Source of the DNA: an uncultured bacterium
GTDB taxonomy: Bacteria; Edwardsbacteria; AC1; EtOH8
Assembly: GCA_964588285.1 (NCBI GenBank)
Contig: CAZPNX010000001.1
Span: forward strand, 143 to 64,142
Reading direction: 5' to 3'
Length of the DNA stretch: 64,000 nucleotides
Shown: in pieces, positions 1 to 42,227 of the stretch
Layout of the letters: each line of letters opens with the position of its first letter
Position numbering within the stretch: position 1 is the first letter of the stretch
Position numbers and translations under genes: made by a program
The notes under the pieces: generated by a model
Told to the model about the DNA's origin: nothing
Seen by the model: only the letters and a program-made list of their open reading frames with translations
Database searches by the model: none

Positions 1-8
1 GGGAAGAG

Positions 9-2287: not shown

Positions 2288-3374
2288 AATTGCCATCGTC
2301 CACGACTGGCTGGTGAGGTCAGGAGGGGCGGAGAGGGTGCTGGAGCGCCTGCTCGGCATTTTCCCGGAGTCCGATCTCTACACGCTCTTTCGCATCCCCG
2401 GGGCGGTTCCCCGAACTATCGAATCGAGGATCAAGGGCGTTTCGTTCCTCCAGGGCCTGCCAGGGCTGGAACGCAACTATGGAAGATACCTGCCGCTGTT
2501 CCCCAAGGCGGTAGAGTCCCTGCCGCTGTCCGGATACGACCTGGTGGTGTCCTCGAGCTACTGCGTGGCCAAGGGGGCGGTGGCGGGCGGGAACGCCAGG
2601 CACCTGTGCTACTGCCACACGCCGATGCGCTATGTCTGGCACCAGCAGGCATTCTACGAAAAAGGATTAGATCCGGTTTCCAAAGCTCTTTTTAGGATAA
2701 CCGCTAAAAAGCTCAGAAAGTGGGATGTCTCAAGCGCGGCAAGGGTTGACATTTTTACCGCCAACAGCCGGTGTGTGGCCCAGCGCATAAAAGAATATTA
2801 CGGCCGGACGGCTGTGGTAATCCACCCTCCGGTGGATGTAGGTTTCTTTACTCCCGGCAAGTCCGGCAGCCGGGGAGAATATTATCTAACCGTCGGCGCC
2901 CTGGTCCCGTATAAGGGTTTCATGAGGGCAATCGCGGCCTGCGCCAGAACGAAACGAGGCCTGATCGTGGTCGGCGATGGGCCGGAAGCAAAAAACCTAA
3001 AAAAAATAGCCGGTTCTGGAATCACTTTCGTCGGCTGGCAGGACCGGGATGGCGTAAGAGAATTGATGCGGGGATGTCGTGCCCTGCTGTCTCCGGGTGA
3101 GGAGGACTTTGGCATAGTTTTGGCCGAAGCCCAGGCTTGCGGGCGGCCGGTGATCGCCCTGGACCGCGGCGGCGCCGGGGAGACGGTGGTTGACGGTGTG
3201 ACCGGCGTCCTATATCAAGAGGATACGGTCGAAGGCTTGATAGGTGCTTTGGAAAAAGCCGAGAACTGCCGTTTTGACCCCGAGGCCATCCGAAAGCATT
3301 CCTTGAAGTATTCGGCCGGTTTTTTCAAAGAAGGCATAACTTCCATGGTCAAGCGATTGACAAGAGGAAGCTAA
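2271..3374 (+). CDS. glycosyltransferase family 4 (GT-B, group 1)
   Basis: C-terminal 'EDFGIVLAEAQACGRPVIALDRGGAGETV' is the typical GT4 E-x7-E region; GTG start overlapping the upstream gene. Confidence 0.8.
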   Translation: MRPTSKIAIVHDWLVRSGGAERVLERLLGIFPESDLYTLFRIPGAVPRTIESRIKGVSFLQGLPGLERNYGRYLPLFPKAVESLPLSGYDLVVSSSYCVAKGAVAGGNARHLCYCHTPMRYVWHQQAFYEKGLDPVSKALFRITAKKLRKWDVSSAARVDIFTANSRCVAQRIKEYYGRTAVVIHPPVDVGFFTPGKSGSRGEYYLTVGALVPYKGFMRAIAACARTKRGLIVVGDGPEAKNLKKIAGSGITFVGWQDRDGVRELMRGCRALLSPGEEDFGIVLAEAQACGRPVIALDRGGAGETVVDGVTGVLYQEDTVEGLIGALEKAENCRFDPEAIRKHSLKYSAGFFKEGITSMVKRLTRGS

Positions 3375-3375
3375 A

Positions 3376-4794
3376 ATGCTGAGGAAAGGGCAGATCCCAT
3401 TTTCCGGCATACTGATGCTGGTTGACGCCGCCTTGGTATTCGCCTCATTCCTGATCGCCTTCATGTTCCGGTTCTATTCCGGCTGGATTCCGCTGCGCCA
3501 TGCGGTGCCGCCGTTCCAGCCCTATCTGGTGGGCTCGCTGGTGGTGGCCGCCTTGTGGATACTTGTCTTCTGGCTGCTGGGGCTGTACGAGACCCGCCTC
3601 CGGCTGACCAAGGACGAGGAGGTGTACCGGGTGGTCAAGGGCACCTTCGTCTGCGTGGTGGCGGTGATGGCCTTTTCATTCTTCTACCGCGAGGTGGTCT
3701 GGTCGCGGTTGGTGCTGATCATGGCGGTGGGCGTCTCCCTGGTCCTGGTGAGCGCGGAGAGGGTGGTGCTGGTAGGGGTCTTTCGCCGCTGGATGGCCGT
3801 CCACGGCTACGGCATCAAACGCTCGGCCCTCATCGGCAGCGGCAAGACCGCCAAGCACATACTGGAATACATAAACCAGCATCCGGAATACGGCTATCGA
3901 ATCGACTGTCTGCTGAGCGTCGAGGGTCTGGCGGAATCCGGTTGGCGCGGCTCCAAATCACTCCTCTGCGAGCGGGTGTCATCGATGTCCGGGCTATCCG
4001 ACGCCATAGATCGGCATCGACTGGATGCTCTGTTCATTGTTCTGCCCCATGAGCTGCAGCCCCGGGTGATGGACATCGTCAGCAGCACCGAACACCGGCC
4101 GGTGGAACTGAAATTTGTGCCCGATCTAATTGACGTCATCAGCAGCAATACCCGGGTCTCCCAGCTGGGCGAGATTCCGGTCATCGGCCTGCGGGAGCTT
4201 CCCTTGACCGCCTGGGATATAATCATCAAATCGGCCTTCGACTTCATTTTCGCTCTGCTGGGAATCATCCTAATATCGCCGCTGCTTCTGATAATCGCCG
4301 TCATGGTGAAGCTGACCTCGAAAGGGCCTTTGATCTATACCCAGGAGCGGGTGGGATTCGACGGCCGGGTTTTTAAGATGTATAAATTCCGCTCCATGAA
4401 AGTGGATGCCGAAAAGGAAACCGGCCCGGTCTGGGCCAAGGAGGGGGACGACCGGCGCACTCCCATAGGGGCTTTCCTGCGCAAATACAGTTTGGACGAA
4501 CTTCCCCAGCTTTTCAACGTTCTTAAGGGCGACATGAGTTTGGTCGGACCCAGACCAGAGAGACCTTTCTTCGTAAAGCAGTTCGAACAGAGGATTCCGG
4601 GCTACGCTTCCCGCCACCGGATGAAGTCGGGCATCACCGGCTGGGCCCAGGTTCACGGTCTGCGCGGGGACACCTCCATCGAGAAAAGGACCGCCTTCGA
4701 CATCTATTACATACAGAACTGGTCGCTGCTTTTGGACCTGAAGATCCTTATCAGAACCGTTCTCCAGGTGATCATCCCTGACAACGCCTATTGA
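3376..4794 (+). CDS. polyprenyl-phosphate hexose-1-phosphate transferase, WbaP/WcaJ-type initiating phosphoglycosyl transferase
   Basis: Four or five N-terminal TM helices, then the C-terminal bacterial sugar transferase domain 'KGPLIYTQERVGFDGRVFKMYKFRSM...DELPQLFNVLKGDMSLVGPRPE'. Confidence 0.85.
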   Translation: MLRKGQIPFSGILMLVDAALVFASFLIAFMFRFYSGWIPLRHAVPPFQPYLVGSLVVAALWILVFWLLGLYETRLRLTKDEEVYRVVKGTFVCVVAVMAFSFFYREVVWSRLVLIMAVGVSLVLVSAERVVLVGVFRRWMAVHGYGIKRSALIGSGKTAKHILEYINQHPEYGYRIDCLLSVEGLAESGWRGSKSLLCERVSSMSGLSDAIDRHRLDALFIVLPHELQPRVMDIVSSTEHRPVELKFVPDLIDVISSNTRVSQLGEIPVIGLRELPLTAWDIIIKSAFDFIFALLGIILISPLLLIIAVMVKLTSKGPLIYTQERVGFDGRVFKMYKFRSMKVDAEKETGPVWAKEGDDRRTPIGAFLRKYSLDELPQLFNVLKGDMSLVGPRPERPFFVKQFEQRIPGYASRHRMKSGITGWAQVHGLRGDTSIEKRTAFDIYYIQNWSLLLDLKILIRTVLQVIIPDNAY

Positions 4795-4803
4795 GGTGGC
4801 CTT

Positions 4804-5535
4804 ATGTCCTCAGAATACGTTATCGACATCTTCGAGCTGTGGCGCATCGTCCTGCGCAGACGGTGGCTGGTGTTGGCTTCTGTGCTGCTTTTTGTCGCCG
4901 GTACCGGCGTGGCAACCCTTTTAACACCTCGTATCTACCGCTGTCGTTCGACGATCTCCCTGCCTGGTGAGCCATACCGGTGGATCGGGATACCCGAGGT
5001 TAAGGAAATGGTGACCGCGGCCTGGGCTAGGGCCAATCGAGGGAAATTATTGAATGGGATGAAATCCGAAGATGTAAATAAAATAAAAGCGATTAAAGTT
5101 CAGGAAATACCAGGTAGTGAGACAATTTTTAAATTAGTAGTAACGACTAAAAATGATGCCAACCTGGCAAGGGAAATCTCAGGCGTTATTTTCCAATTTC
5201 TTGCCACAGATTCCACAGTTCAATCCCGGCTTAAGGTAGTGGCCCAAGGAGCCGATTCCGTAATTGCTTTTGCCGAGAAAATATTTCGCAATTACCAAAG
5301 CCGCAATCGTTTTCCAAATATGCGGGATGCGGAGTTAGTGGCCTTATATGATAAAGTTATAGAATATCGTATACGTAGGGCAAATATGCGCAATTTCGAG
5401 TATATAAGCCCGCCGGAATTGGAACTTTCTCCAGTCAGCCCCCGTCCTTGGATCAATTTATCCGTGGCTTCTCTGGTAGGGTTGATGGTTGGTATTTTGT
5501 TGTCGGTAACAATCGATCGCAAAAATGACTGTTGA
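4804..5535 (+). CDS. Wzz-like polysaccharide chain-length determinant (PCP) family protein, short
   Basis: N-terminal TM 'WLVLASVLLFVAGTGVATLL', soluble middle and C-terminal TM 'LSVASLVGLMVGILLSVTI' give a Wzz-type topology. The 3' half is markedly AT-rich. Confidence 0.5.
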   Translation: MSSEYVIDIFELWRIVLRRRWLVLASVLLFVAGTGVATLLTPRIYRCRSTISLPGEPYRWIGIPEVKEMVTAAWARANRGKLLNGMKSEDVNKIKAIKVQEIPGSETIFKLVVTTKNDANLAREISGVIFQFLATDSTVQSRLKVVAQGADSVIAFAEKIFRNYQSRNRFPNMRDAELVALYDKVIEYRIRRANMRNFEYISPPELELSPVSPRPWINLSVASLVGLMVGILLSVTIDRKNDC

Positions 5536-5579
5536 TCTTCCTTACCATACAATCTTGTTTTAACTACGATAACATTCAG

Positions 5580-7373
5580 ATGGCACGTTTCCGATACCGG
5601 GTGTTGTTCCTGACCAGCTGGTATCCTCACCCGGAGAATCCATATAACGGAATTTTCGTAAAGCGAAAGGCGGAGGCCCTAAAGCACCGCGCCGATGTCG
5701 CGGTGCTATTTGTTATTGGTGTGAAAGACACAAGGGGAAGATACCAAATTAAATCTTCTTACGAGTCTGGTATAAAGACTTGGAGGATATTTTATCGTTC
5801 TCCTTACTCCAAGCTGGGTCCTTTTAAAGTATTAACCGATCGGTTGCGATATCTTAGGTCTTGTCTGATAGGCCTTAGGATGGTTAAAGATGGTTTTGGA
5901 CGTCCTGACTTGGTTCATCTTCATGTCGTTCATCCAGCCGGATACGCGGCCTTGGCATTAAAACTATTTACCGGCATTCCTTATGTGCTGACAGAGCATT
6001 GCGATCTGGCCCTCAGGATTTCCCGAGGGCTGCAGAGGATCGGTCCAATCTCAAGGTGGCTGATGAGGCTGGTGATGGATCAGGCAGTAAAGGTAATGGT
6101 TGATTCCACCGCCATGCGCCAGGCATTGTGTGCCGAGGGTTTTCGAGACGATGCCGTGGTTATCGCCAATATCGTTGAGCCGGTTTCTGACACTGCGATT
6201 CGCCGACGGAAAGATAATGGATTTCGCTTGGTGCATGTGTCCTCGTTATGGGATCGGCAAAAAAATGTTTCCGGACTGTTGCATGCTTTAGTTGCTGCTG
6301 TCAAACAGTTGGTCCCGGAGAAAATTGTTCTCGATATTATCGGGGACGGGCCGGATAGAGAAATTTTACAATCTCTGGCTGGGGAACTTGGACTACTGGG
6401 GAAAGAGGTGCGTTTTCATGGGCAGCTGGATGAAGTAAATAAAAAAAAGCTTTTATTACAAGCCGATTGTTTTATATTAAGCAGCCGTTTTGAGGGTTTT
6501 TCTGTGGCCACCGCCGAAGCGTTATCTGCCGGATTGCCGGTGATCGTTACCGACTGCGGCGGTCCCCGTGACTTCGTGAATGAAGAAAACGGGATAACGG
6601 TACCGCCAGATGATCACCTTGCGCTTTCCCAAGCCATTGTCAGGATGTGCCGCGAAAGAGACAAGTATTCCCGGTTGGCAATCCAGAAGCAGGCCCAAAA
6701 AGCATTCGATTCGGAGAGCCTTATCAATGCCACTTTGGCAATTTATGACCAAGTGCCGGTGCGTTGGACGGCTGGCCTAAGCTGGGAAAGGATCGAGGTA
6801 AATCCAGAATGGCTGGTGCTGGATGTCGGCAGCGGCCACAACCCGAACGGACGGGCCGACATCCTGCTGGATCGCGGCCTGGAGCCCTCGGAACACCGTA
6901 CCGGGCAGCGAACGGTCATCCCTACAGGGAGAGGAATGGTCATCGGCGATGCCACCGCCATGCCATTTATTAACGGCGCCTTTGACTACGCCATCGCCTC
7001 CCACATAGCCGAACATGTGGAGCAAGTAGAGGCCCTGATGTCGGAACTACAGCGGGTTGCCCAGAGGGGGTATCTGGAGACTCCGGGTCTCTTGACCGAA
7101 TATATAAGCAACGTGCCTTATCACCGTTGGCTGGTGCGTAAAACCATTGATGGGATTGTATTTGAGCGAAAGAAAATATTCCGAGTTCCCAACCCGCTGC
7201 TCTTCGCTTTTTTTAATTTGAACGACAGCATAGACGGCAGAAAAACATATAAAAGCCATAATTCATTCTTGATGGCCGTCCACCGATCGATAACTAGAGT
7301 CTGGAAATTTCTGCCGTCGGCTTACACTAAATACCACTGGCAGGGAAACATAAAATATCAAGTCCGACGTTAG
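5580..7373 (+). CDS. GT4 glycosyltransferase fused to a C-terminal class I SAM-dependent methyltransferase domain
   Basis: N-terminal GT4 region ('RYRVLFLTSWYP', 'EGFSVATAEALSAGLPVIVTDCGGPRDFV'). C-terminal region has 'LVLDVGSGHNPNGRADILLDRGLEP...DATAMPFINGAFDYAIASHIAEHV' (SAM-binding motif I plus the Methyltransf_11-like post-I region). Start chosen at the internal Met 'MARFRY'. Confidence 0.75.
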   Translation: MARFRYRVLFLTSWYPHPENPYNGIFVKRKAEALKHRADVAVLFVIGVKDTRGRYQIKSSYESGIKTWRIFYRSPYSKLGPFKVLTDRLRYLRSCLIGLRMVKDGFGRPDLVHLHVVHPAGYAALALKLFTGIPYVLTEHCDLALRISRGLQRIGPISRWLMRLVMDQAVKVMVDSTAMRQALCAEGFRDDAVVIANIVEPVSDTAIRRRKDNGFRLVHVSSLWDRQKNVSGLLHALVAAVKQLVPEKIVLDIIGDGPDREILQSLAGELGLLGKEVRFHGQLDEVNKKKLLLQADCFILSSRFEGFSVATAEALSAGLPVIVTDCGGPRDFVNEENGITVPPDDHLALSQAIVRMCRERDKYSRLAIQKQAQKAFDSESLINATLAIYDQVPVRWTAGLSWERIEVNPEWLVLDVGSGHNPNGRADILLDRGLEPSEHRTGQRTVIPTGRGMVIGDATAMPFINGAFDYAIASHIAEHVEQVEALMSELQRVAQRGYLETPGLLTEYISNVPYHRWLVRKTIDGIVFERKKIFRVPNPLLFAFFNLNDSIDGRKTYKSHNSFLMAVHRSITRVWKFLPSAYTKYHWQGNIKYQVRR

Positions 7374-7383
7374 GATCCACGCC

Positions 7384-8661
7384 TTGTTGCGAATAATGAT
7401 GCATACCTTCATGTTTCGAGTGGCCGCTGCGCTGCTGTCGCTTGGACTTCTGATAGCCAGCACCAGGTATCTAGGGGCTGATGGCCGTGGTGTCCTGAGT
7501 TTGGCCTTGACCGGTATTGGGATCATTGGTATGCTGAGCGGCTTCATGGGTGGATCCAGCATGGTCTACCTGCTTTCCCAGAGAAAGGACAGAGCACATC
7601 GCCAACGAATCATCGGAATAGCAGCTGTTTGGTCGATAGTTTCCTCGGTTATAGGAACAATATTCATGGGGCTTTTAGGGATCATACCCCAGCCAGTTAT
7701 CGTTCACGTTTTCTTATTGGGAATGCTGGCAAATCTGTTGGCTATTTTTTCCTATGCACTTCTTTCAATCGAAAGGATAACTTATTATAATCGAATCGCT
7801 TTTCTCCAAGTGGCCACTACCTTGGCTATCTTCGGGCTATGGCCAAAGCTGGGGGGGAGGGCAAACGTAGGGCTATATTTGGCTGCATTGTATTGTTCCT
7901 ATCTGATATGTCTGGGAATAGCATCGGCTCTATTGGGCAGAATCAAACAGGCGCCCGAACCGATTGTTGAAAAAAACAGCAGCATAATTGATACAGCCCG
8001 GCAAGTTCTTGGCTATGGGATGATTTCCCAGGCCGGTTTGGTCATACAATTCTTAAATTATCGCCTGAGCTATTTTTTTCTGGACCATTATGCCGGCAGG
8101 GCGGCGGTCGGGATTTATTCAGTAGGGGCGATTTTAGCCGAGTCTCTATGGATGTTTCCCGGAAGCATCGCTCTGGTCCTTTACGCCAGGGTATCCTCGG
8201 TTGGCGAAAGCCGGACAGTTCAGGAAACGACTATCGCTCTGTCCAAATTGAGTTTGGTTGTCACCGCCGCAATGTTGATTGTTTTACTGGCAGTGCCGCC
8301 GGCTTCTTTATCCGCTATATTCGGGAAAGATTTCATCGGCGTGAGCCGGGTAATCTTGTGTTTGTCTCCAGGGATAATGGCCCTCAGTTATGCCATGATC
8401 ATTAACCATTATATGGCGGGTATAGGCCGTTTCAGGGTGAATACCGAGGCTGCGGCCTTGGGTTTGGTATTGACTGTAACCGGCAACGTTCTTTTAGTCC
8501 CCCGGCTAGGGTTGATGGGCGCGGCCCTAGCTGCCAGCATGGCTTATATGGCGGCCGCGGTATATGCAACCAGCTATTTTATAAAACGATCAGGGTTAAA
8601 ATTTGTAGAACTGCTTCCTGGTCGGGACGATTTTTTAAGGTTTAAGTCAATAATTACGTAA
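7384..8661 (+). CDS. Wzx-type oligosaccharide flippase (MOP superfamily polysaccharide biosynthesis protein)
   Basis: About 12 predicted TM helices across 425 aa; positioned between GT genes and asnB. TTG start; alternative ATG at 7396. Confidence 0.75.
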   Translation: MLRIMMHTFMFRVAAALLSLGLLIASTRYLGADGRGVLSLALTGIGIIGMLSGFMGGSSMVYLLSQRKDRAHRQRIIGIAAVWSIVSSVIGTIFMGLLGIIPQPVIVHVFLLGMLANLLAIFSYALLSIERITYYNRIAFLQVATTLAIFGLWPKLGGRANVGLYLAALYCSYLICLGIASALLGRIKQAPEPIVEKNSSIIDTARQVLGYGMISQAGLVIQFLNYRLSYFFLDHYAGRAAVGIYSVGAILAESLWMFPGSIALVLYARVSSVGESRTVQETTIALSKLSLVVTAAMLIVLLAVPPASLSAIFGKDFIGVSRVILCLSPGIMALSYAMIINHYMAGIGRFRVNTEAAALGLVLTVTGNVLLVPRLGLMGAALAASMAYMAAAVYATSYFIKRSGLKFVELLPGRDDFLRFKSIIT

Positions 8662-8668
8662 AAAGCGT

Positions 8669-10648
8669 ATGTGTGGTATAGCCGGATTCCACCTTCCAAA
8701 TTCAGAAAACATGTCTGACGCGCTGGAAGCCATGGCCCAAGCCCTCAGGCATCGCGGTCCTGACGATGAGGGCTATCTAGTTGTAGAATGCTCTACAGGT
8801 AAAACCAACCAGCTGGGGGGCGCTGATTGTCAGCTCGAATTGCCTCCGATAAAAACCTATCGGGGCAAGGCCGATCTCTATCTGGCTCATCGCCGTCTGT
8901 CGATTATCGACACCTCGCCCCGAGGCCATCAGCCAATGCCATCCCCAGACGGAAGACATTGGATAGTATTCAACGGAGAGATATATAATTTTGTAGAACT
9001 TAGGGGGGAGCTTAAATCACATGGCCATCGCTTTCGTACCGGCACCGATACCGAAGTGGCGCTGGCTGCTTATGGTACTTGGGGAATTGAAGCTTTGCAT
9101 CGCTTTAACGGCATGTGGTCTTTCGCTCTTTATGATGTCGAGAAAAAAGAATTGATTTTATGCCGGGACCGGTTCGGGGTTAAGCCCCTCTATTATTTTC
9201 ACCTGAATGACATATTTGCCTTTGCTTCCGAAATAAAATCTCTAGCCTCTTTCCCTCAGTTCAATTTAAATACCGACCTGGCACAAGTGTTTGACTATCT
9301 TCTTTTCGGATGGGAGGGAGAGGCGGGAAAGACCTTGTTCCAAGAAATACGGGAGTTGGAGCCCGGCTCAGTGCTGCGATATCGGCTGGACCGGCGTTCA
9401 CTAAAAATCAACAAGTATTATCAACTTCCGCAAAATGATGATTGTCCCGCTTATAATTCTGTTCTAGCACAGAATTATTCGCAGGAAATATCCTATCTTC
9501 TGAGGCAAGCAGTTGAGCTGAGGTTGCGTTCTGATGTGCCTATCGGTTCCTGTTTAAGCGGCGGATTAGACAGTTCAACTATCGTCTGCACCATTGACCG
9601 TCTTTTAAAAAAGGGGAAACTGGAGCAGGTGGGGGAAAAGCAAGCCGTTTTTACTGCAGGATATCATGATTACTCTAAGGATGAAACAAAATGGGCTAAA
9701 ATGGTAGCGGAATCTGTCGCCTTAACATGGTACATTTCATATCCTCGGGCGAGGGAACTTTTAACAGACATAGAAGATCTAGTATATTACCAAGAAATAC
9801 CATTTATTTCCACCAGCATCTATGCCCAGTACCGGATCATGAAATTGGCCAGGGAGCAAGGGATAAAGGTTCTTTTGGACGGCCAGGGCGGAGATGAGCT
9901 ATTTGGCGGTTATGCCAGCTTTTATGCGATGCAGCATCGAGAGATGTTGACAAATGGCAAATGGAGCGCCTTGTGGCAGGAATGGAAGTCACAAAAAGAA
10001 GCCTCGGTAAGCTTATGGGCGACCCTATTAAATCTAATTATGCCCGCCATTAAGCGGTTGGCGCCTTCCGACTTTATGTCGACCATGTACCGCAGCATTA
10101 GACCCGAGTGCAAATATATTTCAGGAGATTTCTGGAGGCATTATCGGCATCGGACCGAGGCTATAACGGAGAGATATCATCGTGGTTTGAACCATATGCT
10201 TCGTGATATGATGACCGGCCTCAGCCTTAAAAACCTTCTCCGTTACGAAGACCGTAATTCTATGCGTTTTTCCATAGAATCACGGACTCCTTTTGCCGAC
10301 GACCTGCCTCTGATTGAACGGCTTTTCTCAATACCCGGGATATACAAAATCCATCATGGATGGAGCAAGCATCTATTGCGCATGGCCGCCAAAGATTTAG
10401 TGCCAGAACCCATCCGCTGGCGTCACGATAAAATAGGATTTGCCACTCCGGAGTCCAAGTGGCTAAGGGAGATAGGGCCTTCTCTATTGGCCTACATGGA
10501 CCACAGGCTGTCGTCGGTTATCGATATCGGAAAATTTATAAGGGACTGGCCGTCCATTATCAATAATCAGAGCCGGGAAGGAGTGACCACTGTCTGGCGC
10601 TTTCTTAACCTAGGAATATGGGCCAGGGTTTTCAAGCTGAATTTATGA
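8669..10648 (+). CDS. asnB: asparagine synthetase (glutamine-hydrolysing) family amidotransferase
   Basis: N-terminal 'MCGIAGF' (Ntn Cys2 nucleophile) and PP-loop 'SGGLDSS'. The position suggests a sugar-amidating role, as for WbpS-like enzymes. Confidence 0.9.
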   Translation: MCGIAGFHLPNSENMSDALEAMAQALRHRGPDDEGYLVVECSTGKTNQLGGADCQLELPPIKTYRGKADLYLAHRRLSIIDTSPRGHQPMPSPDGRHWIVFNGEIYNFVELRGELKSHGHRFRTGTDTEVALAAYGTWGIEALHRFNGMWSFALYDVEKKELILCRDRFGVKPLYYFHLNDIFAFASEIKSLASFPQFNLNTDLAQVFDYLLFGWEGEAGKTLFQEIRELEPGSVLRYRLDRRSLKINKYYQLPQNDDCPAYNSVLAQNYSQEISYLLRQAVELRLRSDVPIGSCLSGGLDSSTIVCTIDRLLKKGKLEQVGEKQAVFTAGYHDYSKDETKWAKMVAESVALTWYISYPRARELLTDIEDLVYYQEIPFISTSIYAQYRIMKLAREQGIKVLLDGQGGDELFGGYASFYAMQHREMLTNGKWSALWQEWKSQKEASVSLWATLLNLIMPAIKRLAPSDFMSTMYRSIRPECKYISGDFWRHYRHRTEAITERYHRGLNHMLRDMMTGLSLKNLLRYEDRNSMRFSIESRTPFADDLPLIERLFSIPGIYKIHHGWSKHLLRMAAKDLVPEPIRWRHDKIGFATPESKWLREIGPSLLAYMDHRLSSVIDIGKFIRDWPSIINNQSREGVTTVWRFLNLGIWARVFKLNL

Positions 10649-11898
10649 TGGCCGATAAAGGTCGTAAGACCAATATATTATTTGTCTCGGCGCTGGATTT
10701 TAAGGAAAAATCGATTCAGGTTATTCGCAAAACCCCAGAAGCTTTCCGAGATAGCGGCTGGGAAGTGACTTTTATTGTCGCCCGGGACGAATCTAAATCC
10801 GGCGATTACTTCTACGAAAGGGTTTTTAACCCGACTGGGATAAGGGTGGTAAGGATCAATTGGCCGTTATCACGGCTGCAGGATCGGACCCGGGGAAGTG
10901 TCAAAGGGACCATCGTTTCAAAGCTGAGAAGCTATTTGGCCATCATTGGACTGGCGGCCAAGGCCGCCGGAATGCTGTCTATCGAGAGATTCGATGTTGT
11001 TTATGGATATGAAGTCCACGGCTATCTGGCCGTCTGCCTGATGCGTTTGTTAGGAATGGTCCGCGGAGCCAGGGTAGTGGCCCGTTTCCAAGGATTCAAA
11101 CAGAAACAAGGGTTGATGGCCCTGCTTAATTGGGAAATGTTTCTGGCGCTTTTAGTTCCGGCTCATGTTTGCATCATGACCGACGATGGGACCCAGGGAG
11201 ACCGGGTGCTGCGCTATCTGAGATCAGCCAATGCGGCTGGCCTCAGGTTCTGGACCAATGGTGTCGATCCAGTTCCCCCTTTATCAGAGAGTGAGAATAT
11301 TTGTATAAGACAGAAGATGGGATGCCCTAGTAAATGTTTTCTGTTGGTATCCATCAGCCGGTTGGTGCCCTGGAAACGGGTGGACCGGGGCATAAGGATA
11401 GTGGAACGTTTGGTCAAGGAGTACGGCCGAAAGAACATCTTCTATTGCATCGTCGGAGGAGGAATTGAGAGCGGCCGGCTGCAGAACCTGATAGCCGAAC
11501 TGGACCTGACCAGCCATGTCAAACTGGCCGGGCCGCTCGAGCATTCCAAGGCGCTGGATTTACTGAGAGCGGCCGACGCCTTTATCTCGACTTACGACCT
11601 CTCCAACGTCGGCAACCCCCTGCTGGAGGCCATCCGGGCCCACAAGATGATCTTCACCCTGGACAACGGCGATACTGGGAAATGGATAAAGCACGACGAG
11701 AACGGCTTCCTTTATTTACCCAACGATGAGTCGATCCCGGCCATAGCGCGCGACCTGGACCGGCTGATGGGATCCCCGGAACTTGCTATCGCTATAAAAA
11801 AAGGTATACTCAAAACCGAACACCGCCTATGGACCTGGGAACAGAGGATGAAGGCCGAGGTGGATGAAATCGCCGGGCTGGTCCAAGCATGTCGATGA
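10645..11898 (+). CDS. glycosyltransferase (GT-B, group 1-like)
   Basis: ATGA start/stop overlap with asnB. GT4-like C-terminal region 'LLEAIRAHKMIFTL...'. Divergent sequence. Confidence 0.65.
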   Translation: MMADKGRKTNILFVSALDFKEKSIQVIRKTPEAFRDSGWEVTFIVARDESKSGDYFYERVFNPTGIRVVRINWPLSRLQDRTRGSVKGTIVSKLRSYLAIIGLAAKAAGMLSIERFDVVYGYEVHGYLAVCLMRLLGMVRGARVVARFQGFKQKQGLMALLNWEMFLALLVPAHVCIMTDDGTQGDRVLRYLRSANAAGLRFWTNGVDPVPPLSESENICIRQKMGCPSKCFLLVSISRLVPWKRVDRGIRIVERLVKEYGRKNIFYCIVGGGIESGRLQNLIAELDLTSHVKLAGPLEHSKALDLLRAADAFISTYDLSNVGNPLLEAIRAHKMIFTLDNGDTGKWIKHDENGFLYLPNDESIPAIARDLDRLMGSPELAIAIKKGILKTEHRLWTWEQRMKAEVDEIAGLVQACR

Positions 11899-13208
11899 TT
11901 GGTGTCCTGTTGAAGGCTTTTCTGCTGTCCGCATTTATCGGACTTGGCATCAGTTACGGACCGTTCTACCTATCGCATATTGCTCTGGCCGGAGTGCTGG
12001 TTGTTATCCTGGTTCATCTCTATAAGCGGAGAGGTCTTTTACAATTACCCCGTTTGACCACCAACCTGCACCTTTTCCCGGCATTGATGTTAGCTTGGTA
12101 TCTGGTGACCTGTCTGTGGAGCCCCAACCTGACGGTCAGCCTAAAATATCTACTGTATCTGACGTTCGGTGCCTGTATATCGCTGGGGGTGGTTTATTAT
12201 TCCAGGAGCGAACAGCGTCTTCTATGGTTGATCCGGGCATTTCTGATACTTCTGGGGATTGAGATAGTTCTGAGCCTGTTGGAAGCTTTTACTCCTTTTC
12301 GGTATCCTATCTCGCCCCAATCTACGTTGGCGGCTTATTTCGGACGGGAGATGCTGTTGGAGCCTTGGACTATGGCAAAAAAAACGCTGGAGGTGGTGAC
12401 CAGCTATCCCACCGGTTTTCGTTGGAATCCAAACAATCTGGCTACGGTCCTGAACCTTTTCCTCCCATTCATTCTGATGCAGCGTCAGCGGGGGGTGAAA
12501 GCAGCCGGGGCCGGTTCGATTCTGTTGATCATAGTCATGACCAGCTCCAGAATAAATCTGGCTGTCTGCATATTAATCATTGCCCTTTACCTGATTTTCT
12601 TTTCTACCCACCGTGGTCTTTATACCGTTATGCTGTTGCTGGTTGTAACCACCTGGCTTTTGGCCATGCCTCTATTAAATGATAATTATGAGGGTCGGAT
12701 GCCACAATCCCTGAACGAGGTTCTGCACACCTGGGATGCAGTGAAGCGTTTTTTCTCGGAGGAAAGGTTCGTTGGAGACTCAGTCACTCTAAGAAGAAAT
12801 TACCTTAAAAACGGTCTGGAGGCCATTGCCGGTTCCGGCGGCTGGGGGGTGGGGGCAGGATGCGCTGGCGAGGAGCTATATCAATCCGGCGCAATAGCCC
12901 CGGGTGCGGAAAGGGCCAGCCTGCACAATTACTGGCTGGAGATGGCAGTCGATGCCGGTCTTCTCTTCGCTTTTCTTTTCTGGATGTGGTATGCTACTAT
13001 CGTTATTTGGTTGTTACGACTGTATGGTCGAAGCCTCAAGTCTACAATCAGATATCTGGCTTCGACGTCTGGCTTGGCTTTAATCGGAATGGTTCCGGCC
13101 GCGACCGGCACCAGCAGCGTTGTTTATGAGCCAGTCCTGTGGTTGATGTACGGCATCGGCATAGCCACCATCAATCTTGGCTATGCGGACAATCTAAAAG
13201 CCGGTTGA
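11889..13208 (+). CDS. Wzy-like O-antigen polymerase / O-antigen ligase family membrane protein
   Basis: At least 10 TM helices with a large loop late in the protein carrying 'HNYWLEMAVDAGLLFAFLF' (Wzy_C-like motif). Confidence 0.65.
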   Translation: MSMIGVLLKAFLLSAFIGLGISYGPFYLSHIALAGVLVVILVHLYKRRGLLQLPRLTTNLHLFPALMLAWYLVTCLWSPNLTVSLKYLLYLTFGACISLGVVYYSRSEQRLLWLIRAFLILLGIEIVLSLLEAFTPFRYPISPQSTLAAYFGREMLLEPWTMAKKTLEVVTSYPTGFRWNPNNLATVLNLFLPFILMQRQRGVKAAGAGSILLIIVMTSSRINLAVCILIIALYLIFFSTHRGLYTVMLLLVVTTWLLAMPLLNDNYEGRMPQSLNEVLHTWDAVKRFFSEERFVGDSVTLRRNYLKNGLEAIAGSGGWGVGAGCAGEELYQSGAIAPGAERASLHNYWLEMAVDAGLLFAFLFWMWYATIVIWLLRLYGRSLKSTIRYLASTSGLALIGMVPAATGTSSVVYEPVLWLMYGIGIATINLGYADNLKAG

Positions 13209-13209
13209 G

Positions 13210-14286
13210 GTGATGAAGATAATGATGCTGGCTCCGGCCAGCTCGATTCACACTAGGAGGATTGCATCTTCGCTGGCGGACAGAGGATGCCTTGTGGAGG
13301 TAGCCACCTATCATCCCGGTTTGATCCCTGGAGTCAGGATCCACGTATTGCCCAGGATCCCGATGTTTAGAAAAATCGGATATCTTTCGGCGATCCCTGC
13401 AATTAAGATCCTGATTAGGCTTATGAATCCTGACATTCTTCATGCCCATTACCTTTCGAGTTACGGAGCGGCAGCCTGGATCTGCGGTTTTCATCCCTTG
13501 GTAGTATCCGCCTGGGGCACCGACATCTTTGTTTTCCCTCATCATAGCCTGATAAATCGGTGGCTGATACGGCGGATTACGGATTCAGCCGATGCTATTT
13601 TGTCCACCAGCCGTTTCATGGCCTCCGAAGTTAAACGATACACCGCCAAGCAGGTGATGGTGACTCCATTTGGGGTGGACACCTCGCTGTTCCGGCCCAT
13701 GCCGATGATTAGAAGAAAAGGCCAAGAGGAAACTATCGGCTCGGTCAAGGCGCTGGAACGGCAATATGGCATGGATGTGGTCATAAAGTCATTCGCCGGA
13801 GTTGTTGCTGATAAAAAAAAGAAACCGCTGAAGCTGGAGATTGTGGGCTCGGGACAACAGGAGGGTGAACTTAAGAGATTGGCCATCCATTTAGGAATAG
13901 CTAGCAAGGTCAATTTTGCCGGTTTTATAGAGCATTCGAAACTTCCAGAAATATTCAACAGTTTTTCGGTGGCCGCCTATGGGTCGATATGTCCGGAATC
14001 ATTCGGGGTTTCCCTCTTGGAAGCCCAAGCTTGCGGGGTGCCGGTGGTGGCCAGCGATATCGGCGGTTTTCGCGAGGTGGTGCGTCATGGTTTTACTGGC
14101 CTTCTGGTACCTGCGGGCAATCATCAGGCTATGGCCGAAGCCATTGGGGAATTACTTGATGATCATGAGAAAAGAAAACGTTTCTCTCGTGCCGCCAGAG
14201 AATTCGTCGCAGCCGAGTATTTCTGGGAGAAAACAATCGACTGTTTTATGGCACAATACTACAGGCTAATCTCTACTGACAAATGA
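13210..14286 (+). CDS. glycosyltransferase family 4
   Basis: 'ESFGVSLLEAQACGVPVVASDIGGFREVV' is the GT4 consensus. Confidence 0.8.
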   Translation: MMKIMMLAPASSIHTRRIASSLADRGCLVEVATYHPGLIPGVRIHVLPRIPMFRKIGYLSAIPAIKILIRLMNPDILHAHYLSSYGAAAWICGFHPLVVSAWGTDIFVFPHHSLINRWLIRRITDSADAILSTSRFMASEVKRYTAKQVMVTPFGVDTSLFRPMPMIRRKGQEETIGSVKALERQYGMDVVIKSFAGVVADKKKKPLKLEIVGSGQQEGELKRLAIHLGIASKVNFAGFIEHSKLPEIFNSFSVAAYGSICPESFGVSLLEAQACGVPVVASDIGGFREVVRHGFTGLLVPAGNHQAMAEAIGELLDDHEKRKRFSRAAREFVAAEYFWEKTIDCFMAQYYRLISTDK

Positions 14287-15512
14287 GGCGGACTGCCAGA
14301 CAGACTACAGATACAGGGTTCGATTTCCTGATCGACAATTTACTGCGGGCCTCATTGGTAGGTTTTGTCGGCTCAATGCCGGTTTCCATAGCCTTTTGCC
14401 AAATTTCTTTAGGGGTTGCCTGGCTGTCATGGCTCGCTATTTGTTGGCGGAAAAAGCGGTGGCTTGGCTACGCCACCGGGCTCGAAATTGCAGTGGGCCT
14501 TTTCCTTGCTGCCTGTGTCCTATCTACGATTTTATCCGCCCAGCCTTTGGACAGCCTAATTGGTCTAAAGAAATTTTACCTGGCCTCGTCCCTTTTCCTA
14601 GTAGCCTATGCCTGCCATTCACCTGAAGATGGCAGAAAATTAATAACAGTCTTTCTTTTCTTTTCATCTCTTACAGCAGGCTATGGTCTGCTGATGTACC
14701 TTGCCGGAATGCAGGGAAGGGTGACCGGCATTCAAACCATGGCCCTGACGGCCGGCGGCATATTTATGATGGCCGCCTTGTTGTCACTAGTTTTTGCTAT
14801 CCAGGGAAGAATATTAACGCGCTGGCTATCGGTGCCCATTTCAATTATATTGTTAGCGGCATTATTATTAAGCCAAAGCGCCGGTTCGTTGGTATCACTT
14901 ATTATAGGGTCGATTAGCGTGCTTATTTTATCTCGTCGTTGGAAGATATTGGCGGCGACAGCAATAGCCGCTACCGTTATAACGGTTTTCTTTTTCAAAC
15001 TACCATCAGGGACTGGGTCGACAGTGGCGATCCAGAAGTCCAACACTTGGGAACTGCGGAAAACCATCTGGAACGTGGGATGGAAGGTTTTTAAGGAAAA
15101 ACCAGTGACTGGCCATGGGCTGATAGACCTGGGGGAAGCCTACCACCGAAACCGGGAGCGTTGGGACTTGGAAAGAGACCCATGGAACACCTGGAATTAC
15201 GGACACCTGCACAATATTTTTCTCCAGATTGCCGCCAACACCGGGGTGATTGGATTAGCGGCTTTTATTTTTCTGCTTTATTCGGTGCTGTCATTATCAT
15301 TGGGATTGATAAAATGCGTGAAACAAGACATAAAGGCTCTGGGTTTGGCTCTATCCGGTGTTATTATTGGGTTTATAGTCAATGGTTTGGCCGAATGGAA
15401 CTTTGGAGACTCCGAAGTAGTGACTGTCTTCTGGTTTGCCGTGGGGCTTTCGGTCCTGTTGAAGAAATCAATAAAATGGAATCCGATTGTTTCAGATAAT
15501 GCCGGCTATTAA
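14283..15512 (+). CDS. O-antigen ligase (Wzy_C) family membrane protein; WaaL/PglL-like
   Basis: Multi-TM protein with 'NYGHLHNIFLQIAANTGVIGLAAFIFLL', the Wzy_C/O-antigen-ligase hallmark (conserved His in the periplasmic loop). Confidence 0.7.
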   Translation: MRRTARQTTDTGFDFLIDNLLRASLVGFVGSMPVSIAFCQISLGVAWLSWLAICWRKKRWLGYATGLEIAVGLFLAACVLSTILSAQPLDSLIGLKKFYLASSLFLVAYACHSPEDGRKLITVFLFFSSLTAGYGLLMYLAGMQGRVTGIQTMALTAGGIFMMAALLSLVFAIQGRILTRWLSVPISIILLAALLLSQSAGSLVSLIIGSISVLILSRRWKILAATAIAATVITVFFFKLPSGTGSTVAIQKSNTWELRKTIWNVGWKVFKEKPVTGHGLIDLGEAYHRNRERWDLERDPWNTWNYGHLHNIFLQIAANTGVIGLAAFIFLLYSVLSLSLGLIKCVKQDIKALGLALSGVIIGFIVNGLAEWNFGDSEVVTVFWFAVGLSVLLKKSIKWNPIVSDNAGY

Positions 15513-16764
15513 ATTGAAACTACTATTTTTAACCCACTACTTTCCACCCGAGGTGGGCGCCCCTCAATCGCGCATTGATGAGATAGCGAAGGTACTAGCA
15601 AAGCGGGGCCATAAGGTATCGGTGCTGACCAATTTCCCCCATTATCCCGATGGTGTCATCAAAACGCCTTATCAAAGGGCTGTACTGCTTAAAGAGTCCA
15701 GGGGCGAGGTGGATGTAATCCGTTCCTATGTCTGGGCCAGACCCAATAAGGGTTTCGCCAGCAGAATGGCCAATCATCTTTCTTTCTGCATTACCTCGTT
15801 GGTAGCGGCATCCAAACTGCCGCCGTGCGATGTGGTGGTGACGGAATCGCCGCCCCTGTTCCTGGGATTCAGCGGTTGGATAATTTCCCGGATGCTGGGC
15901 GCCTCCCATATTTTCAATGTGGCCGACGTCTGGCCACAATCGGCAGTGGAAATGGGTGCCCTAACCAACCGAACAGCCGTTACGATGGCAGAATGGTTGG
16001 AACGTTTCATCTACGACCATAGCCATCTGATAACGGTGGTCACTGAGGGCATCAGAAAAGACCTGTTGGCCCGCGGGCTGGCGACAGAGAAGGTAGCCAC
16101 CCTGACCAATGGGGTGGACCTGGATTTTTTCCAGTCTCAGGGAAAGGGTTTGTCTGTTAAAAATGAACTAAATCTATCCGGCAAGTTCATAGCATTATAC
16201 GCCGGCACTCATGGGATGGCCCAGGGCTTGCATGTGGTGCTTAGAGCCGCAGGAATATTGGCAAACGAACCGAATATTGTTTTTGTGATGGCGGGCGACG
16301 GTGCCGAAAAAGCGGGGCTGGTGGAAACTGCCCAAAAAATGAACCTAAAAAATGTGAGATTTCTGAATACTTGGCCAAAATCACGCATGCCCGAGTTGCT
16401 CGAGGCCGCCGATGTCTGTCTGGTGACTCTGAGGAAACTGCCGGTTTTTCGACGGGCACTTCCGTCCAAGATGTACGAGGCTATGGCCATGGCCAGGCCT
16501 CTGGTTGTTTCCGCCGAGGGCATGGCCGCCGAATTGGTGGACTCAACCAACTGCGGAATGGCCATCCCTCCGGAAAATCCGGAAAAGCTTGCAGAAGCGG
16601 TTAAAGACCTGTTTCGGAATCCCTCTAAAAGAGCCAAAATGGGGCTTCGGGGAAGGAATTTGGTGGAGAGGGAATACTCACGTGAAAAGATTGCCGGGAA
16701 ATGGGAGCGCCTGCTGGCGGAAACGGCTGAGAGAATAGATTTGCAATCGTTGTATGGACAATGA
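15487..16764 (+). CDS. glycosyltransferase family 4 (WcaI-like)
   Basis: 'LKLLFLTHYFPPEVGAPQSRIDEIAKVLAKRGHKVSVLT' N-terminus and C-terminal GT4 region 'VSAEGMAAELVDS'. Confidence 0.8.
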   Translation: MFQIMPAIKLKLLFLTHYFPPEVGAPQSRIDEIAKVLAKRGHKVSVLTNFPHYPDGVIKTPYQRAVLLKESRGEVDVIRSYVWARPNKGFASRMANHLSFCITSLVAASKLPPCDVVVTESPPLFLGFSGWIISRMLGASHIFNVADVWPQSAVEMGALTNRTAVTMAEWLERFIYDHSHLITVVTEGIRKDLLARGLATEKVATLTNGVDLDFFQSQGKGLSVKNELNLSGKFIALYAGTHGMAQGLHVVLRAAGILANEPNIVFVMAGDGAEKAGLVETAQKMNLKNVRFLNTWPKSRMPELLEAADVCLVTLRKLPVFRRALPSKMYEAMAMARPLVVSAEGMAAELVDSTNCGMAIPPENPEKLAEAVKDLFRNPSKRAKMGLRGRNLVEREYSREKIAGKWERLLAETAERIDLQSLYGQ

Positions 16765-17315
16765 AAAGAGTATTTGATATAATTATTTGTTTTACATTGC
16801 TGCCGCTTCTTTTGCCTCTGATGCTGGCGGCTGGTTTGGCGGTGGTCATCGATTCCGGGCCTCCGGCGCTCTTTTTACAGGAAAGGGTGGGCCGCGGCGG
16901 AAAAATTTTTCGCATTTACAAGTTTCGCACCATGATTCGGGACGCCGAATCCAAGGGGCCTTTACTGGCGGAACGGGGAGATCCCCGGGTGACCAAGGTG
17001 GGAAGGTTTCTGAGACGCTGGAGTTTGGACGAGCTGCCCCAGTTATTTAATGTTATCAAGGGGGAAATGAGCCTGGTGGGGCCGCGGCCGGAGCTGCCGC
17101 CGCTGGTGGACGTCTATACTCCCTGGCAGCGACAAGTGCTTTCGGTGCTGCCGGGCGTCACCGGGTTTTCCCAGGTTCACGGCCGCGATGATCTTTCCAT
17201 GGACACCAAGCTACGTCTGGATGTTTACTATATAAAACACCGCAGCCTGGCGATGGACCTCTGGATCATCTGGCGTACCGCCTTCGAGCTTGTTTCCGGA
17301 CGGGGGGCTTTCTGA
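16761..17315 (+). CDS. small monotopic phosphoglycosyl transferase, PglC/WecP-like (bacterial sugar transferase)
   Basis: 184 aa with a single N-terminal re-entrant helix, then 'RVGRGGKIFRIYKFRTM...DELPQLFNVIKGEMSLVGPRPE'. This is the second initiating transferase in the cluster. Confidence 0.85.
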   Translation: MKRVFDIIICFTLLPLLLPLMLAAGLAVVIDSGPPALFLQERVGRGGKIFRIYKFRTMIRDAESKGPLLAERGDPRVTKVGRFLRRWSLDELPQLFNVIKGEMSLVGPRPELPPLVDVYTPWQRQVLSVLPGVTGFSQVHGRDDLSMDTKLRLDVYYIKHRSLAMDLWIIWRTAFELVSGRGAF

Positions 17316-17318
17316 CAT

Positions 17319-18011
17319 ATGGGAGAGGCCGAGAGGATTGCCGAACGCTATCAACGCCGCAAGATCTTGCCGGCCGGTCGTTATTCCATGTTCGATCCCG
17401 GCAACCTTTTCATCATCCACCAACGCGAGAGGCTTCTACTGCGGTTGCTCCGAAAACATGGTCTGGCAAACCTGGCCGGGGCCACCCTTCTGGAGGTTGG
17501 CTGCGGCGACGGTTGGTGGTTAAGAAGGTTTGTGGAATACGGGTTCAGGCCGGAGAACCTAAGGGGCATAGAGCTTTTGCCGGAGAGGGTGGAGCGGGCC
17601 ATGTTTTTAAGCCCCAACATCAGGATAGAGTCGGGCGATGCCTCTTGCCTGGCTCTTCCGGATGGTTCATTTGATATAATTTTCCAGAGCACCGTCTTCA
17701 GTTCGATGCTCGATACGGCTATGCGGCGGGAGACGGCCAAGGAGATGCTTCGAGTCCTTCGGCCGGGCGGGATGATCATCTGGTACGATCTTCGGGTGAA
17801 CAATCCAAGCAACCCCGACGTTAAGGGACTGGGCCGCCGGGAGATTGAATCTCTTTTTCCGGGTTGCTGCTACTGCTTCCATCGAACTACTTTGGCTCCG
17901 CCTTTGGCGAGAACCCTGGCTCCGGTAAGCTGGTCGCTCTGCCATCTGCTTTCGCGGCTGCCCCTACTTCTTACCCATTATCTGGCGTTCATATCCAAAC
18001 CCGCTTTCTAA
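17319..18011 (+). CDS. class I SAM-dependent methyltransferase
   Basis: 'LLEVGCGDGWW' (motif I) ... 'LRPGGMIIWYDL' (motif III/post-II). Confidence 0.75.
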   Translation: MGEAERIAERYQRRKILPAGRYSMFDPGNLFIIHQRERLLLRLLRKHGLANLAGATLLEVGCGDGWWLRRFVEYGFRPENLRGIELLPERVERAMFLSPNIRIESGDASCLALPDGSFDIIFQSTVFSSMLDTAMRRETAKEMLRVLRPGGMIIWYDLRVNNPSNPDVKGLGRREIESLFPGCCYCFHRTTLAPPLARTLAPVSWSLCHLLSRLPLLLTHYLAFISKPAF

Positions 18012-25140: not shown

Positions 25141-26397
<1,257 letters not shown>

Positions 26398-27742: not shown

Positions 27743-27743
27743 C

Positions 27744-37102: not shown

Positions 37103-37142
37103 ACTGGGTTGCTGAACTATAATAATATAGCAAAATAGGTAG

Positions 37143-38867: not shown

Positions 38868-38921
38868 GATTTCGCGACCACTTGTCACCAAAAAATTGAT
38901 CATTCTTTGCAAGATTAGATA

Positions 38922-40694: not shown

Positions 40695-40789
40695 CACTAA
40701 GAAACACAAAATACAAAATCCAAATCTCAAAAGATCAGCGCCAAAGCCGTACTTTGAATTTTGAATTTTGGATTTAGAGGAGTAAAGAG

Positions 40790-41863: not shown

Positions 41864-42227
41864 GAGGACAGGAATTTTCATCCCGCGCATTTCCCATGCC
41901 TGGCAAATTGATGAGGTGCCCTGAGGCGGGCATACACGACTGCATGCGAAGGGGATGACGAGCAGAGTCGCCCTTCAGTTTGCCGGGCAGGGAGCCATCC
42001 CTCGGCAGGCGTTTGACCGAGCTCAAGCCTAGGTCTCGGGACAAGACTCAGGGTGACAAGTAAGCAGAAAACCTGTCATCCCGAGAAAGGCGGAGTGCCC
42101 GACAGGCTGTGGGATGACGATAAAGCAGAAAAGCCTCACCCTTCATCCAGTCAGGCGAGAATGCCAGATTCAGGGTGACAGCATGGAAGGTTAATAACAC
42201 TAGATAAACCCCATAGGGAGCACCAAA
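41864..42227. repeat. cluster of 4-5 imperfect ~40-nt dispersed repeats in the pilT-pilC spacer
   Basis: Units such as 'GGGGATGACGAGCAGAGTCGCCCTTCAGTTTGCCGGGCAGGG' and 'GGGATGACGATAAAGCAGAAAAGCCTCACCCTTCATCCAGTCAGGC'. Related copies lie at ~43490-43560 and 61930-62005. Confidence 0.5.

Follow-up and report, generated by a model that had tools for sequence, protein, structure and literature searches.

A GT4 glycosyltransferase fused to a compact methyltransferase-like module in a Wzx/Wzy-type polysaccharide locus of an uncultured Edwardsbacteria bacterium

Glycosyltransferase (GT) and S-adenosylmethionine (SAM)-dependent methyltransferase (MT) domains are known to occur together in single polypeptides. 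WsaE, from the S-layer glycan system of Geobacillus stearothermophilus NRS 2004/3a, has the domain order MT-GT-GT, forms a 2-O-methyl cap and belongs to an ABC-transporter pathway (PMC2943079), the chlorovirus PBCV-1 protein A064R has the order GT-GT-MT, its MT 2-O-methylating the terminal rhamnose that the GT domain in front of it has attached (PMC9614988), and the Klebsiella O7 terminator ORF6 is built as MT-kinase-coiled-coil-GT2-GT2 (PMC11231755). Here we analysed a 64,000 nucleotide stretch of DNA (the window) from an uncultured bacterium of the Edwardsbacteria lineage (GenBank assembly GCA_964588285.1, contig CAZPNX010000001.1, positions 143 to 64,142 of the forward strand), in which a single gene at 5580..7373 (+) encodes a GT4 glycosyltransferase domain followed by a compact class I SAM-methyltransferase-like module. 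With a probability of about 0.6 we consider the product to be a bifunctional enzyme, the GT4 domain adding a sugar to a lipid-linked Wzx/Wzy repeat unit and the MT module methylating the glycan, probably at a hydroxyl. The intact open reading frame (ORF), both folds, the conserved catalytic and SAM-binding motifs, the recurrent association of GT and MT and the Wzx/Wzy context are established, and from these we infer that the protein is enzymatically active, that its acceptor is lipid-linked, that methylation is on O and not on N or a carboxyl, and in which order the two reactions run.

Like the fusion protein, WsaE carries GT and SAM-MT domains in one polypeptide, and its MT O-methylates a sugar of a glycan built on a lipid carrier; going by its published description it is set apart by an N-terminal MT and two rhamnosyltransferase domains, whereas the fusion has a single GT4 domain and a compact C-terminal MT and lies in a Wzx/Wzy-type locus. 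A064R has in common with the fusion one or more GT domains followed by a C-terminal MT of ~200 amino acids (aa), but is a viral protein of a protein N-glycan system with two non-GT4 GT domains, as opposed to one GT4 domain encoded in a bacterial locus. No close viral structural match bearing the name A064R was found, the best match in BFVD being an unnamed 214-aa viral protein (A0A516LBT6) that has the whole MT fold in common with the module (TM 0.67). ORF6 of K. pneumoniae O7 and WbdD of E. coli O9a and K. pneumoniae O3 likewise couple a class I MT to glycan polymerisation machinery, but do so with an MT-kinase arrangement, a coiled-coil ruler, an ABC-transporter pathway and a terminal phosphate as the methyl acceptor (O9a/O3, O7); the fusion showed none of these. 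The principle of a GT-MT fusion is already known, so the practical impact of a further one is modest; the type of MT module, compact and with no curated family, is distinct.

The fusion gene lies within an open frame at 5532..7373 (+) and, from the ATG at 5580, runs uninterrupted through 597 codons to its stop, this ATG being taken as the correct start because several homologues open with the identical MARFRYRV. A preliminary description, made from the sequence alone, had reported one ORF of 598 aa; the single ORF stands, whilst the length had included the stop codon and is 597 aa. The motifs it quoted are all present, with LDVGSGHN at residues 414-421, LLDRGLEP at 429-436 and DATAMPFINGAFDYAIASHIAEHV at 457-480. 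An independent assembly, JGI metagenome contig 3300037501 Ga0394875_0001129 (locus L079), equals window positions 1-17373 at 99.994 % with 0 gaps and 1 mismatch (position 283, outside the fusion gene), the fusion gene itself being 100 % identical, so that the frameshift check in an alternative assembly that had been suggested revealed none. In the JGI annotation the identical protein (P0001, L079:10001-11494, 497 aa) begins 100 codons too late, so that the conserved GT4 N-terminus is lost and an apparent ‘intergenic’ gap of 345 nt arises.

That the fusion is an artefact, two neighbouring genes having been merged through a sequencing or assembly frameshift, might be suspected from the metagenomic origin of the sequence, from homopolymer runs (A7, A8 and T7) inside the gene and from one relative, L040, whose MT part lies in two frames. 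However, beside the gap-free match to the independent assembly, the same unbroken frame recurs in ~45 loci of diverse phyla and projects, the 6-residue linker between the domains is too short to hold a stop/start pair, and inspection of the fusion gene sequence revealed no homopolymer run at the domain junction. An artefact of this kind is effectively refuted, and we leave it a negligible probability. The relative concerned, a Bacteroidota metagenome-assembled genome, has its MT module in two overlapping frames at L040:11233-11786, and is either pseudogenised there or carries an assembly error.

The N-terminal domain (residues 1-392; 5580..6755, +) is a complete GT4 glycosyltransferase of the GT-B fold, as seen with Pfam, with sequence matches in the PDB and in an AlphaFold2 (AF2) model. 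Pfam recognised the N-lobe (PF13439/PF13579, residues 28-200) and the C-lobe (PF00534/PF13692, residues 216-368) at E-values from 1e-15 to 3e-29, phmmer matches among solved structures included PimA, WaaB, MshA, BshA and GlgA (E 1e-10 to 5e-6), and the model consists of two Rossmann lobes of alternating beta/alpha structure with a predicted local distance difference test (pLDDT) score of 90. The EX7E motif of the GT4 C-lobe is present as E305-GFSVATA-E313 (6492..6518, +), both glutamates being invariant in 32 sequences, as are K228 and G24. The GT-B lobes and the EX7E motif are common to retaining GT4 enzymes (PimA, WaaB, MshA and BshA, and the TuaC/EpsE/stp2-like NCBIfam models), and lipid-linked or membrane-associated acceptors would be a further feature in common with PimA, WaaB, MshA and BshA; unlike the fusion protein, these four have no MT domain. 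In the full-length AF2 model (pLDDT 90, predicted TM-score (pTM) 0.84) the linker DQVPVR (residues 390-395; 6747..6764, +) joins the last GT helix (378-389) to the first MT strand (396-398).

The C-terminal module (residues 396-597; 6765..7370, +) was matched by Pfam PF08241, Methyltransf_11, at residues 453-497 with 28.9 bits, above the gathering score of 21.2, and a Pfam search thus recovers both the GT4 lobes and a methyltransferase domain in one frame, as the preliminary description had expected. A profile built from 24 C-terminal MT domains (A2) matched class I SAM-methyltransferases among PDB sequences from motif I to strand beta5, with E ~1e-7 for 1vl5 and LahSB and E ~1e-3 for RebM and a D-glucose O-MT. 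All strands of the seven-stranded beta-sheet methyltransferase fold are present in the model, where an N-terminal beta-hairpin and a ~70-residue C-terminal extension are predicted to surround the core. The Rossmann-type beta-sheet core is common to the module and to the solved Methyltransf_11-type enzymes 1vlm, 2gs9, 3l8d, 1vl5, RebM (3bus) and D-glucose O-MT (6uv6), as are motif I, the acidic residue of beta2 and the D-A pair after beta3. Motif I, the SAM-binding glycine loop V413-L-D415-V-G417-S-G419 (6816..6836, +), was assigned by sequence conservation, V413, L414, D415, G417, S418 and G419 being invariant and V416 nearly so. D431 at the end of strand beta2, the ribose-binding position (6870..6872, +), is D or E in 32/32 family members, and D457-A458 after strand beta3, the adenine-binding position (6948..6953, +), is nearly invariant; S474-H475 after beta4 are also counted among the intact SAM-contacting positions. 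Mean pairwise identity is 47.6 % for the MT part vs 42.4 % for the GT part, the former being at least as conserved.

Where the module departs from its solved counterparts is in the helices that normally flank the SAM-binding site. Helices alphaA and alphaB were not found, the AF2 model having only loops there (pLDDT 85-92), and the spacing from the glycine loop to the acidic residue of beta2 is 12 residues in the module vs 17 in 1vl5. In the model the place of alphaA is predicted to be taken by a conserved 8-residue loop, H-x-P-x-x-R-A-D, directly after the glycine loop, and that of alphaB by a loop bearing H439-R440. This family-specific pair (6894..6899, +), in which the histidine is nearly invariant and the arginine invariant, comprises candidate substrate or catalytic residues; together with the family-specific invariant residues E478-H479, Y498, E500, H515 and W517 (AEH ... 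GYxETP ... HxW; 7011..7136, +) it looks, by conservation, like an acceptor or catalytic site. As the absence of the helices is model-based, we treat the module as a divergent variant rather than excluding it from the class I methyltransferases, and the earlier assignment to that class stands on sequence and fold matches, though not as a standard domain, the module being compact, divergent and with no curated family.

A search of 5.8 billion proteins recovered 31 full-length homologues (594-646 aa, 31-69 % identity), all of them precomputed as GT4 + PF08241. GTDB was scanned with one genome per species (185,579 species genomes) and 78 loci were kept, in ~45 of which a single frame runs on from the GT part into the MT part. 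These fused loci span at least seven phyla and include members of the Bacteroidota, Ignavibacteriota, Nitrospirota (L002), Aquificales (L003) and Acidobacteriota (L041), the complete genome of Ca. Brocadia pituitae (L034) and a deltaproteobacterium (L065), as well as a locus from the window's own lineage whose fusion is 63 % identical (L001). The search for the same fusion in relatives, proposed in the preliminary description, is thereby answered with ~45 species-level genomes carrying GT4-MT, and its remark that such a polypeptide is uncommon holds in so far as the distribution is sparse, but not in so far as this is a conserved multi-phylum family and characterised GT-MT fusions exist.

A further ~30 of the 78 loci hold GT-only relatives, which end 2-8 codons past the GT domain. 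On a rough neighbour-joining (NJ) tree fused (F) and GT-only (N) proteins interleave, as in the pairs L003_F/L039_N, L005_F/L078_N, L025_F/L049_N and L035_F/L058_N, which indicates that the MT module has been gained, lost or replaced among close relatives. A single origin of the fusion is unsupported, there being no single clade of fused proteins on the NJ tree, which is too crude for gain and loss to be counted. In L064 (3972-5888) a member of this GT lineage has another methyltransferase as its fusion partner, a canonical full-length one (Methyltransf_23, profile positions 16-163 of 164), and in three GT-only loci a methyltransferase of this type is encoded separately, starting 18-76 nt past the GT gene. 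These loci belong to Methanotrichaceae (L055:11176-11898), Syntrophomonadaceae (L042:1524-2246) and Altarchaeum (L068:9790-10524), two archaea and one member of the Firmicutes. The strongest argument for both activities working on the same glycan is that this GT lineage is physically tied to a methyltransferase in three independent ways.

Several observations weigh against the bifunctional reading. The Methyltransf_11 match covers only profile positions 46-90 of 95, about half, TM-scores of the MT model to solved methyltransferases are low (0.30-0.48), and no curated NCBIfam family was found for the module, the best being the DVU_1556 family at 22.2 bits vs 155; stand-alone homologues of the module likewise fall below NCBIfam cutoffs. 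Neither the GT4-MT family nor the compact module has a characterised member, the public names of relatives being ‘glycosyltransferase’, ‘methyltransferase domain-containing’ or ‘hypothetical’, and NCBI names for members of the fusion family say ‘glycosyltransferase’ only, leaving the MT domain unannotated. Helix alphaA normally contributes to the SAM pocket and, with alphaA absent in the model, SAM binding cannot be taken for granted. Many GT-only relatives have no methyltransferase within 10 kb, and methylation is not obligatory for the GT lineage of the fusion. No NCBIfam equivalog for the GT domain came near its cutoff (best TIGR03088, 87.8 bits vs 409), so that none of these models points to a donor or acceptor sugar.

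The half-length Pfam match, the lack of a curated family, TM-scores of at most 0.48 and the missing alphaA of the model, together with the fact that GT-only relatives function without the module, would also suit an inactive MT-like domain that serves as a structural, acceptor-binding or SAM/S-adenosylhomocysteine-sensing appendage tuning the GT. Pseudo-enzymes usually lose their SAM-contacting positions, whereas here these are invariant, or D/E, in 32 sequences at 31-69 % identity, and the invariant polar set H439, R440, E478, H479, Y498, E500 and H515 resembles an active site. Moreover, the replacement methyltransferase of L064 and the separate methyltransferases of L055, L042 and L068 suggest that methyl transfer is the selected function, and we regard an inactive module as unlikely.

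The genes around the fusion place it in a polysaccharide locus. The gene order starts with an HpnJ-like B12-binding/radical-SAM ORF (9-1283, cut by the window start; L079:3941-5404, 487 aa), a GT2 and a GT4 gene and a long phosphoglycosyl transferase identified by Pfam (CoA_binding_3 + Bac_transf; 3376..4794, +), and continues with a Wzz-like chain-length determinant (4804..5535, +; a weak match of 29 bits), the fusion, a Wzx-like (MOP-type) flippase directly downstream of it (7384..8661, +; a weak Pfam MurJ match and an iterated hidden Markov model across loci) and an AsnB-type amidotransferase (8669..10648, +). After AsnB come a GT4 gene, a Wzy_C family gene (PF04932, polymerase or ligase; 11889..13208, +), another GT4, a second Wzy_C family gene (PF04932, polymerase or ligase; 14283..15512, +), a further GT4, a small PglC-like phosphoglycosyl transferase (16761..17315, +) and a stand-alone canonical class I methyltransferase with a full Methyltransf_11/25 match (17319..18011, +). 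There follow a PglF/PseB-like dehydratase, a PseC/ArnB-like aminotransferase, a NeuD/PglD-type acetyltransferase, PMI/PGI and a nucleotidyltransferase, and after these lie metK (23894-25039), ahcY (25141-26397) and, on the opposite strand, LptF/LptG. Upstream of the window L079 adds a flippase, a methyltransferase, a GT4 and a GT9 gene. Two GT9 (heptosyltransferase-family) genes near the locus (57253-58248, and L079:2884-3960, 4 kb upstream of the window), taken with LptF/LptG at 26660-28979 (-), indicate that the organism makes lipopolysaccharide (LPS).

The locus thus holds two Bac_transf and two Wzy_C genes, with weaker matches for Wzz and the MOP-type flippase, and no ABC transporter (Wzm/Wzt) was found in the first 25 kb of the window or in the 4 kb that precede it, which together point to a Wzx/Wzy-type pathway in an LPS-making diderm. 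Flippase homologues immediately follow the GT gene in ~10 fused loci, most of the other fused loci having one no more than a few kb away, and they do so in ~7 GT-only loci as well. The idea that the Wzx flippase is tied specifically to the MT domain, methylation serving as an export signal, is unsupported, as GT-only relatives show the same adjacency. The presence of two Wzy_C proteins and two phosphoglycosyl transferases (a long WbaP-like and a short PglC-like one) in one locus is an observation in its own right, and could reflect a polymerase plus a ligase/O-oligosaccharyltransferase or two glycan pathways in one locus.

This context bears on whether the fusion is a chain terminator of the WsaE/WbdD/Klebsiella O7 ORF6 type, in which the methyl group would cap the non-reducing end and set chain length and export. 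All characterised bacterial GT-MT fusions act in this way (PMC2943079, PMC11231755), and giant (MT)n-TPR-GT4 relatives of the module, described below, resemble multi-domain terminators. In place of Wzm/Wzt, however, the locus has Wzx-type flippase, Wzy_C and Wzz-like genes, and a Wzx-like flippase accompanies the fusion gene in most loci; the protein shows no coiled-coil ruler or carbohydrate-binding module (AF2) and no kinase (Pfam, AF2), and WbdD was not among the PDB sequences matched by the A2 profile at E <= 1. A WbdD-like terminator was dropped from consideration, having no sequence match, kinase, coiled coil or ABC transporter on its side, and a terminator role in general appears very unlikely.

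From the Wzz-like gene to the last GT4 gene, and including the fusion, a block at ~4.8-16.8 kb of the window has a guanine + cytosine (GC) content near 0.50 vs ~0.60 in the flanks, the Wzz-like gene being its first. Compared with the syntenic locus L001, proteins of the block are 48-67 % identical whilst the flanking genes are 82-91 % identical, and low GC combined with low identity is the signature of a serotype-variable cassette, possibly horizontally exchanged.

The preliminary description had drawn on the context for an O- or C-methylated glycan, and the methyltransferase at 17319-18011, the radical SAM/B12 protein at 9-1283, metK and ahcY are indeed where it placed them. The stand-alone methyltransferase is real and canonical and strengthens the argument that the product is methylated. 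The radical SAM/B12 protein does not speak for C-methylation, since its best model, HpnJ, is not a methylase and was matched with 379 bits vs a cutoff of 578. Membership of metK-ahcY in the glycan cluster is unsupported, both having housekeeping roles and lying outside the variable cassette in the conserved flank of high GC. A methylated glycan is better supported, by the occurrence of the module on varied GT scaffolds and by the methyltransferase linkage of GT-only relatives, whereas C-methylation is not. HpnJ is a hopanoid-associated model, and its being the best match of a B12/radical SAM protein in a polysaccharide locus is noted as such. Kinship of the fused module with the methyltransferases of the locus (17319-18011 and the one upstream in L079) was also considered and rejected, BLASTP giving no significant similarity.

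Methyl groups on glycans are not confined to hydroxyls, Haloferax AglP being reported to form a methyl ester on a uronic-acid carboxylate and WbdD a methyl-phosphate cap, and AsnB-type amidotransferases typically act on sugar carboxyl or amide groups. The fusion could thus be bifunctional with an MT target other than a sugar hydroxyl, namely a uronic-acid carboxylate, an amino-sugar amine or a phosphate. An AsnB-type gene follows GT(-MT)-Wzx in the window as well as in L001, L003 and L039, the locus produces amino sugars (dehydratase, aminotransferase, acetyltransferase), and LahSB, a ‘C-terminal methyltransferase’ of ribosomally synthesised and post-translationally modified peptides that we take to act on a carboxylate, is among the best PDB sequence matches (E 1.8e-7). 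Against such targets, hydroxyl O-methylation is by far the commonest glycan methylation. Whilst the Klebsiella O7 and O3/O9 terminators methylate phosphate (PMC11231755), it is hydroxyl O-methylation that WsaE (PMC2943079) and A064R (PMC9614988) carry out. AsnB is present in ~6 fused loci only, a phosphate target is disfavoured by the lack of a kinase domain in the fusion protein (Pfam, AF2 model), and the sugar O-MT matches, RebM and D-glucose O-MT, are similarly weak. We give a non-hydroxyl target a small but real share of the probability.

For the preferred reading, that of a bifunctional enzyme acting on a lipid-linked repeat unit, we infer the steps from general knowledge of GT4 enzymes and Wzx/Wzy pathways. 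In the cytoplasm the retaining GT4 domain would move a sugar from a nucleotide-sugar donor onto an undecaprenyl-diphosphate-linked repeat unit of a Wzx/Wzy-type polysaccharide, either LPS O-antigen or exopolysaccharide. The rigidly attached C-terminal module would bind SAM and then methylate the glycan, most likely at a hydroxyl of the newly added or a neighbouring sugar. Methylation would precede flipping by Wzx, the product of the next gene, after which Wzy would polymerise and a ligase attach the glycan. The MT module would be an optional decoration, close GT relatives carrying it, lacking it or having swapped it for another methyltransferase.

The module also occurs on other scaffolds. An exhaustive profile-based search of 1.84 billion cluster representatives gave 362 matches at E <= 1e-30, the number rising to 1685 with a cutoff of E <= 1e-10, with architectures that comprise stand-alone proteins of ~205-230 aa, GT4-MT, MT-GT4 (P0157) and GT2-MT (P0186, P0232). 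In addition there are giant proteins in which two to four MT copies are combined with tetratricopeptide (TPR) repeats and a C-terminal GT4 domain (P0116, 1523 aa; P0125, 1999 aa; P0132, 1026 aa), and a 631-aa protein (P0141) with MT and TPR domains only, GT4 not being shown for it; the multi-copy MT-TPR proteins may be multi-methylating glycan assembly enzymes. A stand-alone copy from the Latescibacterota (P0269, L084:6001-6642) lies between the genes for an FAD-linked oxidase and a Polysacc_synt flippase and overlaps both neighbours, including the start of the flippase gene, and four IMG/VR contigs (L080-L083) hold relatives too. Its repeated fusion to unrelated glycosyltransferases is most simply explained if the module is a glycan methyltransferase.

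A more far-reaching, tentative interpretation, which we think could be right but would not bet on, is that the C-terminal domain represents an undescribed compact glycan-methyltransferase family that has no alphaA and behaves as a mobile plug-in module, switching surface-glycan methylation. Such a module would have been joined independently to GT4, on either side of it, as well as to GT2 and to giant TPR-GT proteins, and would also account for stand-alone copies in bacteria, archaea and viruses. If this were so, gain, loss or replacement of the module in the low-GC cassette would switch glycan methylation and hence serotype or phage-receptor identity.

Methylated sugars alter the antigenicity and hydrophobicity of bacterial surfaces and their recognition by phages and lectins, and for most environmental lineages we know of no enzymes that add methyl groups to surface sugars. 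The fusion would provide a link from gene to modification, the sugar added by the GT4 domain being the one that is methylated, and it is present in phyla for which metagenomes are almost the only source (among them Edwardsbacteria/TA06-like, Ignavibacteriota, Bacteroidota, Nitrospirota and anammox Planctomycetota). An annotation gap is exposed as well, and the compact MT module would deserve a family model of its own.

Elsewhere in the window, AhcY, 83-88 % identical to its named matches, places the organism close to Ca. Edwardsbacteria / TA06. A 1873-aa ORF at 29159-34780 has a weak match to SprA_N (gliding/T9SS-related), limited to residues 1068-1306. The regions 35408-45904 and 47361-48359 hold three tandem PilB-like ATPases (T2SSE + MshEN), behind which come PilT-like, PilC-like and PilS/R-like sigma-54 activator genes, and a pilin-like ORF in a low-GC patch; the latter has its N_methyl motif at residues 163-185, its true start probably lying downstream. 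Directly behind a tRNA (59298-59369) lies a fluoride riboswitch (59378-59436, 48 bits), which precedes an Na_H_Exchanger family gene (59484-60686).

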